From: Aulosira sp. ZfuVER01 | Lineage (GTDB): Bacteria > Cyanobacteriota > Cyanobacteriia > Cyanobacteriales > Nostocaceae | Assembly: GCA_034530615.2 (NCBI GenBank) | Contig: JAVRCV020000034.1 | Location: 32,001-96,000 of the forward strand | Direction of reading: 5' to 3' | Length of the DNA stretch: 64,000 nt | Part shown: piece by piece, positions 41,420 to 48,390 of the stretch | Position numbering within the stretch: the stretch's first letter is position 1 | Layout: each line of letters starts with the position of its first letter | Made by a program: the position numbers and the translations under genes | Notes under the pieces: generated by a model | Told to the model about the DNA's origin: nothing | The model's input: the letters and a program-made list of their open reading frames with translations, nothing else | The model's database searches: none

Positions 41420-43039
41420 GTGGTTAACCCGGAAACACCATCTTTACGCAAAACAGTAGAAAGCCAGATTGTAGCTGTGACGGTATACACTAATACAGCC
41501 CTAGTGACAAGAAGGGGTACTGTTTCCTTAACAGGACAAGAACAGGAATTAGTTATTAGCTCACTACCAGTAACTTTAGAAACTGATTCGGTGAGGGTTG
41601 GTGGTACAGGTACAGTAGGAGTGCGGTTGCTAGGAGTCAGCAGCGATCGCACTTATACCACAGAACCAGTTGCAGAACGTGTGGCACAATTAACAAGGCA
41701 GATTCAGCAGTTAGAAGCAGAACAGCGCCACCTGCAAGCACAAATCGATGCTTTAGCATTGCAGTCTAGTTTTATCGCTGGTTTACGGGAAAAGACAGAG
41801 GAACCTTTTTCTCATAGTTTGGCGCGTAAAAACCTCAGTCTCAGCGAAACCCTGGATTTTCTCAACTTTCTGGGAAGTCAGTATAGCGAATATGCGATCG
41901 CTTCTGGAGAATGCAAAAGCCAACAAGAAGAACTAGAAAAGCAGTTACAAGTCCTCCGCACTTCATTACAAAAAATTCAAACACCCCACCCTAAAGAAAG
42001 TTTGAGCTTAATTGTAGCAGTGGAAGTTGTTGGTGCAGGCGAGTTTGAGCTAGAGCTATCTTACATTGTGAATCGCGCCAGTTGGACTCCGCTTTATGAC
42101 TTACGTTTTAGCCATACCAGCAACATTGTCAATCTCAGCTACTTAGCGGAAGTCACCCAAAGCACAGGCGAAGATTGGAAAGGCGTAGCTCTCACTCTTT
42201 CTACAGCTAGACCAGGATTAGGTACACTCCCACCAAAGCCAGAACCTTGGTATATAAGTACTTTCAGCCCAACAGTACGATTTGCGGAGCGTAAGTTTAG
42301 ACAAATGCCGAAGATGGCAAATCAATTAGCTGCTACTGGTGGAATGAATGAAGAAGAAGACGAAGTTGTGCAAGACAGTTTTATAGAAGCTGAAACTGTA
42401 GTTGCTGAAGTATCTAAAGAAGGAAGTGTAGTCACCTTTAAACTCAATGGTGGGGGTAACATTCCCAGTGATGGCGCACCCCATAAAACTACAATTTTTA
42501 ATGATGATTATCCTAGTAGCTGCGATTATGTAGCAATGCCGCGCTTAGTCAGCTTCGCTTATCTACAAGCTAAAGTAAAAAATAGCCCCAACAGTGCAAC
42601 TTTATTATCAGGAAAAGCAAATATTTTCCGTGACAATATGTTTGTGGGTACAACCAATTTAGAGAATGTTGCTCCAGGACAAGAATTCAAAATTAATTTA
42701 GGAATTGACGAAGGTTTAAAAATTGAGCGTGACTTAGTTGAGCGTCAAGTTGATAAAAAATTGATGAGTAGCCAGCGCCGTATTACTTATGGTTATCGGT
42801 TGATAATTACTAACTTGCTCAATCGAGAAACTCAGATCACTTTAACTGAACAATTGCCAGTTAGCCGCAATGAGCAAATAAAAGTACGTCTCACCCGCAG
42901 CAATCCCCAAATTCAACTTGGAGAAATGGGGATTTTGGAATGGGAGTTAACTCTATTAGCACAAGAAAAACGAGAGATATATTATCAATTTAATGTTGAG
43001 CATCCACCTGAATTAACAGTTATTGGTTTGGATATTTAG
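41420..43039 (+). CDS. DUF4140/DUF4139 (MuiA-like) protein
   Basis: IVAVTVYTNTALVTR, ASWTPLYDLR, QSTGEDW...LTLSTARP. Confidence 0.85.
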   Translation: MVNPETPSLRKTVESQIVAVTVYTNTALVTRRGTVSLTGQEQELVISSLPVTLETDSVRVGGTGTVGVRLLGVSSDRTYTTEPVAERVAQLTRQIQQLEAEQRHLQAQIDALALQSSFIAGLREKTEEPFSHSLARKNLSLSETLDFLNFLGSQYSEYAIASGECKSQQEELEKQLQVLRTSLQKIQTPHPKESLSLIVAVEVVGAGEFELELSYIVNRASWTPLYDLRFSHTSNIVNLSYLAEVTQSTGEDWKGVALTLSTARPGLGTLPPKPEPWYISTFSPTVRFAERKFRQMPKMANQLAATGGMNEEEDEVVQDSFIEAETVVAEVSKEGSVVTFKLNGGGNIPSDGAPHKTTIFNDDYPSSCDYVAMPRLVSFAYLQAKVKNSPNSATLLSGKANIFRDNMFVGTTNLENVAPGQEFKINLGIDEGLKIERDLVERQVDKKLMSSQRRITYGYRLIITNLLNRETQITLTEQLPVSRNEQIKVRLTRSNPQIQLGEMGILEWELTLLAQEKREIYYQFNVEHPPELTVIGLDI

Positions 43040-43139
43040 AGATAGATTGAATCTAAAATAACTAAATGCCTAGCCTCTGCGCCTATAAACTCTTTTAAAG
43101 CCTATAATTAGAGCAATCATATACACCAGACGCTCCTGC

Positions 43140-43718
43140 ATGAACAGCGATCATCCAATTAAAATCCTGTTTTTAGCATCCGATCCCAGCGATGAATCTC
43201 GGCTACGCTTAGGGCAAGAGTTACGTGAAATTCGTGAGCGGCTGCAACTATCAAAAAACCGAGATAGATTTGTACTAGAGTCTCGTGAATCTGTACGTCC
43301 AGGAGATATCACTCAAGCAATCTTTGATGTTGAGCCACAGATTGTACATTTCTCTGGACATGGAAAAAGCACAGGCGAGATTTACTTTGAAAATTTATTA
43401 GGGAAAGCCCAGCCTGTAACACTCGATGCCTTAGCAGCGCTATTTAAAGAAGTAGCTGACCAAATCAATTGTGTAATATTGAATGCTTGTTATTCAGAAG
43501 CCCAAGCGAAAGCAATTGCAGAACACATCGAATTTGTAATTGGGATGAATCAAGCAATTGGAGATAACGCAGCTATAGCATTTACTGTTGGTTTTTACAA
43601 AGCATTAGGAGCAAATCGTTCCATTGATAAAGCTTACAAGTTTGGTTGTGTGGAAATTAATATACAAGGTATTTCAGAGCATTTAACTCCTGTTCTTTAC
43701 GAAAAAAAAAACAGCTAA
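43140..43718 (+). CDS. CHAT-domain caspase-like peptidase
   Basis: IKILFLASDP, RLRLGQE.REI, catalytic His IVHFSGHG and Cys LNACYS; ends in an A10 tract. Confidence 0.9.
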   Translation: MNSDHPIKILFLASDPSDESRLRLGQELREIRERLQLSKNRDRFVLESRESVRPGDITQAIFDVEPQIVHFSGHGKSTGEIYFENLLGKAQPVTLDALAALFKEVADQINCVILNACYSEAQAKAIAEHIEFVIGMNQAIGDNAAIAFTVGFYKALGANRSIDKAYKFGCVEINIQGISEHLTPVLYEKKNS

Positions 43719-43747
43719 AGAATAACCTAGAACCAGCTAAATATATA

Positions 43748-45280
43748 TTGGTATTAAGCGCCACTATTGATGAAGTTAACAAGCCACTAGCAGAAGCTAT
43801 TGTTGCCCATTTGCGTCAAATATCTGGAGATGCATCATTGACACTACAGAGAATTGAGGTTGGTAGTGTAAAACTAGTCTTAGAAGGTTCTCAAGAGGGA
43901 TTGGAGCGAATTTTGGCTCTACTTAGAGAAGGAAAGCTGACTGAGATATCAGGAATTTCTGTCCAGGATGTGCAAGTTGTCGCTTCGTCTAAACAGGAAA
44001 GCAATAGTCCACCACTTAGAAGAGTAACTATAAACTCACAACCAGAAGAAATTGTTGTTGAATCTATTAATGATGCTGCTTCTAGGAGACAGGGAATCGC
44101 TACCCTAAGACAGGGTTTTGAGGAACGGAATCTGCCTATGCTAACAGAAGCAGAAAAACTGGCGCAATATTGGCGAACTCGTCTATTAGCGGAGTGTCCA
44201 GAACAAAGCGCAGCAGATCAAGAAAGTATCATTCTCTGGTTATTGGGACGTGATTCCCAACGGTTGGATCTGCTCAACCCCAAGGAACTTGAGATTGCCA
44301 AGCAAGCAATGGAATATCGCTATCGAATTTTACTGCAACGTTACCTGGGAGTAGCACGAGAACGTGCTTATCGCAACCTAATCACGCGGCTGGCCAGTTT
44401 GATGACATTGCGCAATAAAATTCAGACTTGGGTTTCCCTCAGCCGTGATCGCCAGCGGAGTGTAATAGATGTATTACAAGAAATCATCCAGGAATTACTG
44501 CAAAGCGATAGCTACATCCAAGATCAAATGGCTTGTATCGCTGAAATTACCACCGACAGGCGGCTGCGAGATACGCTACTGTTTGCCAGTATCGAAGAAT
44601 ATTGTTTGCGCCCAGTACGCAATCAGCCGTTGCTGGTTTACCGCTTTGTCAACTACCTGCGCCGTACTCAACGGGGTGGGTTAACTCAAGTGCCTGGTAG
44701 CGACTTGATTAGGCTAGTTTCCGAAGAAATTCTCACCGATGACAGCGACAATCGAGTTAACTTGGTTGATAGTCAGGCGATCGCAGAATATCAAGAAGCG
44801 CAGGAACTAGAAGAACAACAAGTATTGCGTCAAGCTGTACAACAAGAATTTGAAGAATATTTACAAGAAAACCTCGGCACAGAAGCCGTAGAGTGGCTAC
44901 GCCTGTATCTGCAAGGTAAGTCCCAAGACGAAATCGCCAAGAAACTAAATAAACAAATTAAAGAAGTATACCGACTGCGGGAAAAAATTAGCTACCATGC
45001 AGTGCGTGTGTTTGCTCTCAAAGGGAAACCGGAACTAGTGGAAAACTGGCTGGCAATTTCTTTGCAAGAACACAACTTGGGGTTAACACAAAACCAATGG
45101 CAGCAACTCTATGAACAATTGACTCCACTTGGGCAGCAGATTTTAGATTTACGCAAAGCTGGCAACTCAATCGAAGCAATAGCTCAACAGTTAAATATCA
45201 AAACCTATCAAGTGATGGGTGAATGGACAAAAGTCTATCTTGTCGCCCAAGCTTTAAGAACTCAAGATCAAGCTAAGTGA
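43748..45280 (+). CDS. TRADD-N-like adaptor domain fused to a HetZ-related protein; probably reached by frameshift from the CHAT ORF
   Basis: HetZ-related part starts near 44098 (TLRQGFEERNL...LAECPEQS...YRYRILLQRYLG, C-terminal HTH-like SQDEIAKKL); N-terminal LRQISGDASLTL..IEVGSVKLVLEGS; TTG start lacks an SD; frame stays open back through the A10 tract. Confidence 0.75.
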   Translation: MVLSATIDEVNKPLAEAIVAHLRQISGDASLTLQRIEVGSVKLVLEGSQEGLERILALLREGKLTEISGISVQDVQVVASSKQESNSPPLRRVTINSQPEEIVVESINDAASRRQGIATLRQGFEERNLPMLTEAEKLAQYWRTRLLAECPEQSAADQESIILWLLGRDSQRLDLLNPKELEIAKQAMEYRYRILLQRYLGVARERAYRNLITRLASLMTLRNKIQTWVSLSRDRQRSVIDVLQEIIQELLQSDSYIQDQMACIAEITTDRRLRDTLLFASIEEYCLRPVRNQPLLVYRFVNYLRRTQRGGLTQVPGSDLIRLVSEEILTDDSDNRVNLVDSQAIAEYQEAQELEEQQVLRQAVQQEFEEYLQENLGTEAVEWLRLYLQGKSQDEIAKKLNKQIKEVYRLREKISYHAVRVFALKGKPELVENWLAISLQEHNLGLTQNQWQQLYEQLTPLGQQILDLRKAGNSIEAIAQQLNIKTYQVMGEWTKVYLVAQALRTQDQAK

Positions 45281-45381
45281 TAGTTGTATTTCGCCCGCTA
45301 AAAGCTTGGTTCTAGGTTAAGACGGTAATGACATTGGTGAAATAGCAGGTTCTATTATCCGGTTTAGGAGAGCGATAGTAG

Positions 45382-46362
45382 CTAACGTAAAACTAAGTCA
45401 GTAATTAATGGTGCATGGTCAGAATTAGCATTTGCGCCTGTATAGATTTGAGCTACACTAAAATGCTTACTGACGAAACAATGGTCAATAGGAATATTCA
45501 TCAACGGGATGATCCAGCTTGGTAGAGTTACGTGAGTTGCTGGTCGTGGCCAGCTTGGTAAAATACCAAAACCTAAGCGAGTATTGTGCAAATTTGTTTT
45601 ATTGATAAATCGTCGGTAATAAGGCGACCAAGGTGTTAAGTTAAAATCTCCCATTAAAACTACTGGCTGATTCAGTTCTCGAATATAATCACTCAACGCT
45701 GCTAGCTGAAGATTACGTCTATGAAAATTATTGCGAGTTATAGGTACTATGGGATGAGTTCCAATTAACTTAATAGGCTGTTTATCGACTGTTAAGGTTG
45801 CTATAAGGTTATGACCGCCTTTGCCATTGAAATTATCTGCCTTTACATCTTGAATGGGTAAGCGACTAAATATTGCCAGTCCACCACCAGGACTTCTAAA
45901 AGAATAAGGCAGAGTATTTTTTAAACCAGCGTTTAAATTGTCGAAGCCACTGCGATTAATTTCCAAAAATAAAGCTACATCAGGGCGATTATCCTGCACT
46001 ACATTAATAACTTCTTTGTCATCATTATTTTGAATATTAATGTTAAAAGATAAAAGCCGAATTTGTTTAGTTGGATTACCAGCTAACTGTTGCGAATGAG
46101 GTAGATACCAAGGAAGCACCTCAATTACATTCAAACCCACAAGTAATAAAGCTGCAAGAACTATGATTTTACTCTTGAGATGGAGGGTTTTCCAAAGAAT
46201 ACTTAAAATCAGAGTAGCTATTAACGATAAAACTAAATAGTGAACTCGAAAATGAGCGAGTAGTTCTAGCGGCCAGAACCAAGCCATGTAGCTACCGAAA
46301 GATAGCAATCCTAAAATCAAAATGGTAGCGGTTGCGACAATTAAAAGTATTCGTTGGTTCAT
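45382..46362 (-). CDS. Membrane-anchored endonuclease/exonuclease/phosphatase family protein
   Basis: Three TM helices; LLSFNI, MGDFNLTPWS, PIDHCFVS, SDHAPL. Confidence 0.88.
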   Translation of the reverse strand: MNQRILLIVATATILILGLLSFGSYMAWFWPLELLAHFRVHYLVLSLIATLILSILWKTLHLKSKIIVLAALLLVGLNVIEVLPWYLPHSQQLAGNPTKQIRLLSFNINIQNNDDKEVINVVQDNRPDVALFLEINRSGFDNLNAGLKNTLPYSFRSPGGGLAIFSRLPIQDVKADNFNGKGGHNLIATLTVDKQPIKLIGTHPIVPITRNNFHRRNLQLAALSDYIRELNQPVVLMGDFNLTPWSPYYRRFINKTNLHNTRLGFGILPSWPRPATHVTLPSWIIPLMNIPIDHCFVSKHFSVAQIYTGANANSDHAPLITDLVLR

Positions 46363-46766: not shown

Positions 46767-46995
46767 AGTGAATCCCTCTCTATCAGAGCGTTTGTCTACT
46801 CTTCAGATAAATCTTACCTTGCTACTTGCCCTCCTAGTAGTTTAAATACTAACCATCTAATTTGGACTTCTGTCCATAGTAGGAGAAAACCTAAAGGTTA
46901 AGGGAAACAGGAAAGTCCAGCCCTTGAACCCTTTCCTTACCTCATGCAAAAGTACTTGTTACGCTAACCATATATATTTGCTTGCAAGGGCGCTC

Positions 46996-48390
46996 ATGTC
47001 GGAAATATTTGCCACTACTGGAACCATCGCCGCGATCGCAACTGCTGTTGTCCCCCAACAGGGTAGCGTGGGTATTGTGCGGGTGTCTGGTTCTCAAGCG
47101 ATCGCGATCGCCCAAATTCTTTTTCAAGCGCCTGGTCGTCAGGTTTGGGAAAGTCACCGCATTCTCTATGGCTACATCCGCCACCCCAAAACGCAAGAAC
47201 TAGTGGATGAAGCTTTGTTGTTGATTATGCAAGCACCCCGTTCTTACACCCGTGAAGATGTGGTGGAATTCCATTGTCACGGCGGAATTATGGCAGTGCA
47301 GCAAGTGTTGCAACTGTGTTTGGAAAATGGCGCCAGGCTGGCACAGCCGGGAGAATTTACGCTCCGCGCCTTTTTGAATGGGCGATTAGATTTGACACAA
47401 GCCGAAGGTATTGCGGATTTAGTGGGAGCGCGATCGCCGCAAGCTGCTCAAACTGCCTTAGCTGGCTTACAAGGTAAATTAGCTCATCCGATTCGACAGT
47501 TACGCGCTAACTGTTTGGATATTTTGGCAGAAATCGAAGCTCGAATCGATTTTGAAGAAGACTTACCTCCGCTGGATGATAAAGCGATCGTATCAGCAAT
47601 TGAGAACATCGCCGCAGAAATTAGTAAATTACTGGCAACCAAAGACAAAGGCGAACTGCTACGCACAGGTTTAAAAGTGGCAATTGTCGGGCGACCAAAT
47701 GTCGGTAAATCGAGCTTGCTGAACGCTTGGAGTCGGAGCGATCGCGCCATCGTCACCGATTTACCTGGTACAACCCGCGATGTTGTCGAATCTCAGTTAG
47801 TTGTTGGGGGTATTCCCGTGCAGGTGCTAGATACGGCGGGCATTCGGGAAACAACAGACCAGGTAGAAAAAATTGGTGTCGAGCGATCGCGCCGTGCCGC
47901 TAATGCTGCCGATCTAGTGCTGTTAACCATCGACGCTGCCGCAGGTTGGACAGAAGGCGATCGCGAAATTTACGAACAAGTGCAACACCGTCCTTTGATT
48001 CTCGCGATCAACAAAATTGATTTAGTAGAAGAAAGTGTCAAAAACAATCTTCAATCCCAAATTGAAAATCCCAAATGTAAAATTTTGACAGCAGCAGCAC
48101 AAAATCAAGGTATTGAAGATTTAGAAACAGCAATTTTAGAAATAGTTCAGGCTGGTAAAGTCCAAGCTGCTGATATGGATTTAGCGATTAACCAAAGACA
48201 AGCAGCAGCCTTAACCAAAGCAAAAATCTCTTTAGAGCAAGTGCAAACTACCATTACTCAGCAACTACCCTTAGACTTTTGGACAATTGACTTACGAGAT
48301 GCAGTTTATGCATTAGGAGAAATTACTGGCGAGGAGGTTACAGAATCAGTGCTTGACAGAATTTTTAGTAAGTTTTGCATTGGTAAATAA
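46996..48390 (+). CDS. mnmE: tRNA modification GTPase MnmE
   Basis: [49 protein letters not shown]. Confidence 0.97.

Follow-up and report, generated by a model that had tools for sequence, protein, structure and literature searches.

Organization of the locus

We analysed a 64,000-nucleotide (nt) stretch of Aulosira sp. ZfuVER01 (Nostocaceae, Cyanobacteriales; contig JAVRCV020000034.1, positions 32,001 to 96,000), hereafter the window, in which an open reading frame (ORF) for a CHAT (caspase-like) protease is followed in another frame by a long ORF for a TRADD-like N domain (TRADD-N) and a HetZ-related protein 2 domain (HetZ2). The two ORFs meet at an uninterrupted run of ten A's (A10). On inspection, the junction reads TAC GAA AAA AAA AAC AGC TAA, with two slippery heptamers in phase with the CHAT frame, A_AAA_AAA (43703-43709) and A_AAA_AAC (43706-43712), and the CHAT stop codon comes 4 nt past the run (Table 1). 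The translation of the −1 frame contains ...RKKKQLKNNLEPAKYILVLS...; from the run onward the downstream frame reads KKKQLKNNLEPAKYILVLSAT..., which aligns with EKTKHVNKNLEPAKYILVLSAT of a metagenome protein, P0037. One extra A would give a single frame of 713 codons, (2141+1-3)/3. The run with both heptamers, the −1 frame open from the run and the predicted 713-residue product had all been described in a first-pass annotation made from the sequence alone, and our analysis agrees with it on each.

In profile searches, the CHAT ORF matches PF12770 at 33.4 bits (cut-off 24), and it matches PADLOC 'chat' with an E value of 4.4e-18. Residues His74 (in SGHG) and Cys117 (in NAC), which by analogy with the caspase fold are probably the catalytic pair, do not vary in any of the 74 aligned CHAT modules, in line with the intact dyad reported before. 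The middle domain, at first labelled TRADD-N from its motifs, scores 49.9 bits against TRADD-like_N PF20694, above the curated cut-off of 23.7 (E = 2.7e-13), so that the label holds. The C-terminal domain reaches 625.3 bits against HetZ_rel_2 NF037965 (cut-off 400) over residues 140-505. HetZ itself is ruled out as the partner, the HetZ equivalog NF037963 giving 79.8 bits against a cut-off of 550. The earlier naming of a HetZ-related regulator is thus right for HetZ-related protein 2 and wrong for HetZ, and the tie then drawn to a regulator of heterocyst development is not established; a canonical copy of HetZ-related protein 2 is present elsewhere in the same genome (L024, G000:C52).

An AlphaFold2 model of the downstream part, built from a 15-row alignment with a mean pLDDT (predicted local distance difference test) of 76, shows a beta-alpha-beta-beta-alpha-beta domain, in which AKYILVL (residues 12-18 counted from 43703) forms strand 1. 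RRM domains are the top fold matches of this middle domain among the VIA-align matches listed (Z 8.0-8.6), TRADD is absent from the 50 listed, and a Foldseek search against solved structures returned no match for it at E ≤ 0.001. The available part of PMC8195603 describes the TRADD-N fold as an RRM-like two-layer alpha+beta sandwich, and the modelled domain fits this description.

Table 1. Features at and around the junction of the CHAT ORF and the downstream ORF, in window coordinates
Feature	Position	Strand	Basis or remark
CHAT (caspase-like) protease ORF, 192 amino acids (aa), 0 frame	43140..43718	+	TAA at 43716-43718
Uninterrupted A10 run, frame junction	43702..43711	+	sequence; unchanged in contigs
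−1 frame, open from stop to stop	43661..45280	+	525 residues counted from the run (43703)
TTG, sole common start codon near the junction, not conserved	43748..43750	+	encodes L16, inside strand 1
TRADD-like N domain, RRM-like beta-alpha-beta-beta-alpha-beta fold	43736..43981	+	PF20694; AlphaFold2 model; fold matches
HetZ-related protein 2 domain, regulator with a sigma-70 region-4-like helix-turn-helix (HTH)	44165..45262	+	NF037965
DUF4140/DUF4139 gene, upstream neighbour conserved in other genera	41420..43039	+	8 of 18 related loci examined

Authenticity and rarity of the A10 run

Homopolymers are error-prone, and the commonest state among the relatives described below is the in-frame length minus one, as would be expected if the true run were A11 and the gene an ordinary in-frame fusion obscured by a sequencing or assembly error. 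However, Logan contigs of X1 (depth 129) and X2 (depth 816) show no differences and no gaps over 43100-44171 and read A10; X1 and X2 are possibly the assembly's own source, so their agreement tests the assembly rather than the sample. An allele of the type found in a sister species (G006), present in two runs from other studies, also carries A10 and differs in phase, since it lacks one base at 43717 as well as three at 44070. The agreement of the contigs, together with this separate A10 allele, makes an assembly error at the run very unlikely. Two further points stand against an error: none of the other 59 A/T runs of at least 9 in the genome breaks a long frame, and the split relatives are mostly many-contig drafts, presumably typical short-read assemblies.

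The run is also exceptional in its genome (8.03 Mb; A and T frequency 0.29 each). Runs of A or T of at least 10 number 4, against about 54 expected from base composition, and those of at least 9 number 60, against about 186. Only one of these 60, the A10 of the window, separates two open frames of at least 100 codons in different phase, while seven others are in frame within long ORFs. The genome as a whole is strongly depleted in A/T homopolymers, and another A10 lies in frame within a polyketide-synthase-like ORF of 1829 aa (contig C70).

In-frame relatives and gene neighbourhood

Genes that encode the same three domains without interruption exist in other organisms. P0037, which has 670 aa, reads through the junction (...LYEKTKHVNKNLEPAKYILVLSAT...), and in-frame three-domain genes of 670-708 aa occur in three genomes of other genera (G135, G138 and G111). 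The linkers of the in-frame relatives are A-rich but the run is interrupted, as in GAAAAAACAAAG. The existence of these relatives supports the view that the CHAT ORF and the downstream ORF are halves of one gene, one A out of frame. Furthermore, the DUF4140/DUF4139 gene is found upstream of split and in-frame genes alike, and this common neighbour indicates that the two kinds are orthologues.

One orthologue from another genus (G018:C55; L023, 1-1687, minus strand) has the junction in frame (LLCEKENESKAKVRWSIVLEAT) and carries a frameshift inside the CHAT domain, between ..NQAIGDKAA and IAFAVGFYKALG.., at a place that has no A run.

Constraint on the downstream half and absence of a conserved start codon

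The junction could in principle separate two genes, a free CHAT protease and a TRADD-N-HetZ2 protein whose translation begins, perhaps by re-initiation past the CHAT stop, at TTG 43748 or another, non-standard codon. This TTG lies 30 nt past the CHAT stop and is common to the window and G006, and the effector-adaptor logic set out in the available part of PMC8195603 permits separate chains that meet through adaptor domains. However, the codon is TTA in G062 and CTT in G141, no Shine-Dalgarno-like sequence precedes it, and a start there would remove the invariant K13 and half of strand 1, as judged from the alignment and the AlphaFold2 model. The first-pass annotation had found no Shine-Dalgarno sequence for this start and placed it in the middle of the first strand, and it was right on both counts. 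In addition, the residues between the run and the domain (K-N-x-x-E-P-A-K-Y), including those ahead of the TTG, show the same conservation in the shifted frame as in the in-frame relatives, and a scan of 42900-45500 found promoter-like sites at chance level (4 against 5.6 expected) and no terminator between the CHAT ORF and the downstream ORF.

Other split loci, whose survey is given below, tell the same way. Three of the eight TRADD-N split loci have no start before codon 33-42. Across 21 split loci, three have no ATG, GTG or TTG in the first 100 codons past the run, and four more have none before codon 52-86, a position that coincides with the P-loop in the NTPase partners or lies beyond it.

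Despite this, the downstream ORFs evolve under constraint, as estimated by the Nei-Gojobori method from the ratio of nonsynonymous (dN) to synonymous (dS) divergence. The dN/dS ratio is 0.09-0.26 among seven TRADD-N-HetZ2 split loci and about 0.4, with dS saturated, between the HetZ2 type and the kinase-type locus L064; it is 0.11-0.44 in comparable NTPase pairs and up to 0.62 in pairs with L071, which has a different partner. Close pairs with identical junctions give ratios of 0.15 (L075/L077, dS 0.18), 0.16 (L078/L079, dS 0.21), 0.44 (L074/L076, dS 0.10) and 0.23 (L073/L074, dS 0.41), and the window and G006 give 0.26 (dS 0.15). With G278 as the outgroup, the window lineage has accumulated 13 synonymous and 7 nonsynonymous changes since its split from G006 (P = 1e-4 against the 76% nonsynonymous expected), and the G006 lineage 10 and 14 (P = 0.04), which suggests some relaxation of constraint in the latter.

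Purifying selection and the absence of a conserved start codon, taken together, point to a second half that is still translated, or was so in the very recent past, despite lacking its own start. The same combination counts against both a dead gene and a pair of independent genes, and we regard such a pair as quite improbable.

Recurrence of the split across the order

The main new result of this work is that CHAT genes are split at A runs repeatedly, a wider phenomenon than the first-pass annotation saw. The survey covered 756 genomes of the order in all and used a degenerate pattern, CCNRTNNTNYWYGWAAAAAAAA, that represents the last CHAT codons followed by at least 8 A's. In 389 genomes of the family the pattern has 34 matches, against 2 for the reversed control. 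Seven of them fall outside CHAT junctions and 27 are CHAT junctions, comprising 20 that are split with an intact downstream ORF, 2 that are in frame (G146 with A9, G195 with A8) and 5 that either lack an intact ORF or could not be assessed (G147 and G380 are decayed, G377 diverges, G378 lies at a contig end and the sequence of G379 was not retrieved). In 401 genomes sampled from the order there are 6 further matches, against 6 for the reversed control. Three of these are CHAT junctions: G519 is split (A10, −1, a WD40 partner of at least 499 aa with no start codon within 100 codons), as is G728 (A9, −1, a GUN4 partner), and G438 is in frame (A9, a STAND partner). A protein search added three split loci, G375 (A9, +1), G128 (A7, +1) and G138:C3 (A8, +1, a coiled-coil partner).

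In total, 25 CHAT loci are split at a pure A7-A12 run with the partner ORF intact, stop-free and 116-651 aa long; 18 need a −1 shift and 7 a +1 shift. The partners represent at least six architectures, namely TRADD-N-HetZ2, TRADD-N-histidine kinase-receiver, STAND/AAA NTPase, coiled coil, WD40 and GUN4. Among the TRADD-N-HetZ2 orthologues, four are split by A10 with the partner in −1 (G278, G062, G141 and G305) and one by A12 with the partner in +1 (G139), and the TRADD-N-histidine kinase-receiver gene of G110 is split by A9 with the partner in −1. In the CHAT-STAND/AAA NTPase group, ten loci combine the ending ..Y-V-K-K-K after A9 with a −1 partner, in three the partner is in +1 (A8 or A9), and the run is A7 or broken in the in-frame relatives, which have 442 aa. 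The first-pass annotation had envisaged CHAT ORFs that end in a conserved run with a −1 partner. Such splits do occur, and the relatives are neither always in-frame fusions nor furnished with a strong start of their own, but the variation in phase and length is not that of one conserved −1 site.

One in-frame long-run gene, the CHAT-NTPase gene of G146:C13 (L102/L128), has seven extra residues, NYIKQNF, directly behind its A9 run, which its relatives are without; a second indel seems to have restored the frame after an earlier frameshift.

Long runs are out of frame in 27 cases and in frame in 3, raw locus counts that come from kin genomes and are not independent. After a rough clustering of near-copies, in which decayed copies are included, the counts are 19 and 3 (P = 0.035 against two thirds), and the −1 phase outnumbers the +1 phase by 16 to 5 (P = 0.013 against one half).

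These data bear on the notion that an ordinary frameshift at a mutational hot spot broke the fusion, whether or not the free CHAT fragment is still active, with the downstream half decaying and the recurrence reflecting no more than the high indel rate of A runs. Such an origin would explain the clustering of breaks at the run. Decay is indeed seen in G147, G380 and G230, G018 is broken inside CHAT, and G006 combines a second indel with the weaker constraint noted above (10 against 14 changes, P = 0.04). Against it, all 25 split loci keep full-length, stop-free downstream ORFs, close pairs with the same split have dN/dS ratios of 0.15-0.44, the window lineage is constrained (P = 1e-4), and long runs are out of frame more often than in frame, also after clustering. 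We therefore hold plain breakage to be rather unlikely.

Phase variation at the DNA level, in which A10 would be the OFF state of most cells and rare A11 cells would be ON and make the fusion, to be picked by selection such as that by phage, fits several of the same observations. Run length differs among relatives (A7, A8, A9, A10 and A12) with both phases occurring, the split state changed several times on the CHAT tree, poly-A tracts are known sites of phase variation (PMC3711429, in the part available), and purifying selection, a missing start codon and a retained run are likewise predicted. Yet the long-run junctions of the surveyed genomes include no ON allele of the same type (no TRADD-N A11 and no NTPase A10), and every contig set reads A10, although contigs hide minority variants. 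Run length is identical in four of four close split pairs (dS 0.06-0.2), which argues against fast switching. Moreover, RNA polymerase would still slip on an A10 template and make the OFF state leaky. We consider such switching unlikely, if somewhat deserving of weight; it and expression by slippage are not mutually exclusive.

A proposed mechanism of expression by slippage

The explanation that we rank first, and to which we give about half of our confidence, is that the locus is one gene that would yield a free protease from the 0 frame and the full fusion by RNA-polymerase slippage or −1 ribosomal frameshifting. Normal decoding of the A10 message would give the free protease of 192 aa, with its stop two codons past the run. 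RNA polymerase can slip on runs of at least 9 A's and add A's, and ribosomes can slip by −1 on A_AAA_AAA; either event would bring part of the output into the −1 frame and produce the 713-aa fusion. The A-rich run would sit at the junction because the linker after CHAT is lysine-rich (Y-E/V-K-K-K), and this linker may serve as a self-cleavage site of a protease preferring basic residues.

The ranking rests on what is known of slippage on runs of nine or more A's and on the constraint seen without a start codon. According to the portion of PMC5009743 at hand, mRNAs gain as many as 6 additional bases at runs of 9 A's or T's, and poly(A) frameshifts of endosymbionts are corrected in 12-50% of transcripts; the corresponding portion of PMC3711429 lists A_AAA_AAA, A_AAA_AAG and A runs longer than 7 as slippery. 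We infer that slippage takes place in this organism, together with its rate and a two-product state that is advantageous rather than merely tolerated.

Several observations weigh against expression by slippage. In G006 the CHAT end and the A10 run are identical to those of the window, CTAAAG is one A shorter and the downstream ORF lies in +1, so that a −1 slip meets a TAG stop and a fusion would need A9 or A12; this junction is hard to reconcile with a conserved −1 frameshift signal. When a quick maximum-likelihood tree of the 74 CHAT modules is built with the junction columns left out, 12 changes are required to place the split label on it, and well-supported branches force no fewer than 4 of these. 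On this tree, the split state appears to have been gained or lost repeatedly, with split and in-frame alleles interleaved. The tree rejects a single origin, that is, one ancient split clade with a conserved site. The variable length (A7-A12) and phase look like hot-spot mutational dynamics rather than a fixed signal, and runs of A7-A8 should slip little. The decayed long-run copies of G147 and G380 indicate that the split state can lead to gene loss, G377 breaks off soon past the run, and three long runs are in frame (G146 A9, G195 A8 and G438 A9). The region across and behind the run (43695-43800) has no RNA structure beyond that of shuffles (z 0.36), so efficient −1 ribosomal frameshifting is not indicated, and our literature searches gave no slippage measurement for a cyanobacterial RNA polymerase. 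With several origins and a run that varies in length and phase, "programmed" recoding is not proven. Of the first-pass annotation as a whole, the single gene, the real run and the doubt about the TTG stand, and the selection on the downstream half speaks in its favour; the HetZ label and a conserved −1 signal do not stand, and the minority share of the fusion and the gating of the slip are conjecture.

On a more speculative level, filamentous cyanobacterial CHAT modules might carry a built-in slippage site in the lysine-rich linker, giving a free protease and one tethered to a sensor or adaptor. Tentatively, the tethers would be the TRADD-N regulator, STAND NTPase, WD40, GUN4 and kinase partners, and recoding would be family-wide in a cell-death or immunity system. 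Run length, and perhaps also the conditions of transcription, would then determine the ratio of free to tethered protease; we hold this whole reading to be conceivable but doubtful. If the split is functional, annotation pipelines get dozens of such genes wrong, calling a short CHAT protein and, behind it, a pseudogene or a "hypothetical" protein that lacks a start, and it would be the fidelity of transcription that determines how much potentially lethal protease there is in relation to the sensor-bound form. The window would then be a compact case, with one run and two predicted products (192 and 713 aa).

Comparison with known systems

Slippage on A runs is an established means of recoding in insertion sequence (IS) elements, dnaX, Shigella secretion genes and insect endosymbionts. 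By its proposed mechanism, the window locus would join IS OrfA/OrfAB, dnaX and the endosymbiont poly(A) genes.

Judging from the available part of PMC5009743 and its citation of reference 244, the poly(A) frameshifts of Buchnera and Blochmannia are likewise out of frame at a long A run with the downstream part kept. There, correction is by RNA polymerase adding or dropping A's, whereas slippage at the window locus is only proposed. The genes affected there have housekeeping functions, and their genomes are tiny, rich in A+T and under weak selection, whereas the genes considered here are paralogous conflict-type protease genes of free-living cyanobacteria with 6-12 Mb genomes. Unlike those cases, the break in the window falls at a domain linker, and the unshifted product is a complete protease domain. 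IS OrfA/OrfAB and Thermus thermophilus dnaX (A9-A10), in the parts of PMC5009743 and PMC3711429 at hand, make an upstream product and a fusion from one message, by a slip on an A run or A_AAA_AAG with the 0-frame stop just past the run, as proposed here. Those sites, as far as these parts go, are conserved by descent in a fixed phase, whereas here length and phase vary, there are several origins, and no stimulatory structure was found.

The bacterial TRADD-N conflict proteins (Kaur et al. 2021, PMC8195603, partial text) combine the same caspase-type protease, TRADD-N and a sigma-70 region-4-like HTH; such systems occur typically in multicellular bacteria, and their architectures vary among close relatives, as they do here. 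As far as it was searched by term, that text mentions neither frameshift nor HetZ, while the HTH here belongs to HetZ-related protein 2 and tracks the resident canonical copy. In the heterocyst former Anabaena PCC 7120, HetF-PatU3-HetZ functionally ties a CHAT protease to a HetZ-type regulator (PMC9457339, in the available part). HetF is, however, a different and much larger CHAT protein, against which the window CHAT scores 27 bits for a cut-off of 1200, and the partner here is not HetZ; the pathway is a suggestive parallel only. Phase variation at homopolymeric tracts, as covered in part of PMC3711429, likewise involves an A run at a frame junction in a conflict-type family, with lengths varying among strains; here, by contrast, there is no in-frame ON allele of the same type and run length is stable between close relatives. 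Our literature searches, judged by title and abstract, found no slippage recoding in cyanobacterial caspase-like conflict genes; the cluster supplements of PMC3711429, which lay outside the search, could list some.

HetZ-related protein 2 copies and a neighbouring gene

The fused HetZ2 domain of the window is 95% identical to the canonical copy of its own genome, against 70-82% to the fused copies of other genera. In a tree of 31 HetZ2 sequences, 12 fused copies are interleaved with canonical ones (8 changes, at least 5 of them forced). The interleaving and the 95% identity suggest that the domain has been repeatedly gene-converted or re-acquired, as a decoy or mimic of the resident regulator would be. 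A CHAT protease physically joined to a HetZ-type regulator that is kept homogenised with the resident copy hints at a guard or decoy role.

Over 44148-45171, the X1 and X2 contigs form short paired variants, one with 0 and the other with 10-18 differences per 141-209 nt, a pattern characteristic of two near-identical paralogues collapsing in k-mer assembly. A third HetZ2 copy of the same genome lies in frame behind a TPR region in an ORF of 863 aa (L021, G000:C61, 1829-4420), preceded by an AAA_16-like ATPase ORF (L021, 489-1832) with a 4-nt overlap, and the pair looks like another conflict-type architecture around HetZ2.

At 1.6 kb downstream of the split gene, the window carries an ORF of 488 aa (46924-48390, plus strand), which by its translation resembles MnmE, a tRNA-modification GTPase. 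This enzyme acts on the wobble base of the tRNA that reads AAA and AAG, tRNA-Lys; its proximity to the A10 locus is probably a coincidence.

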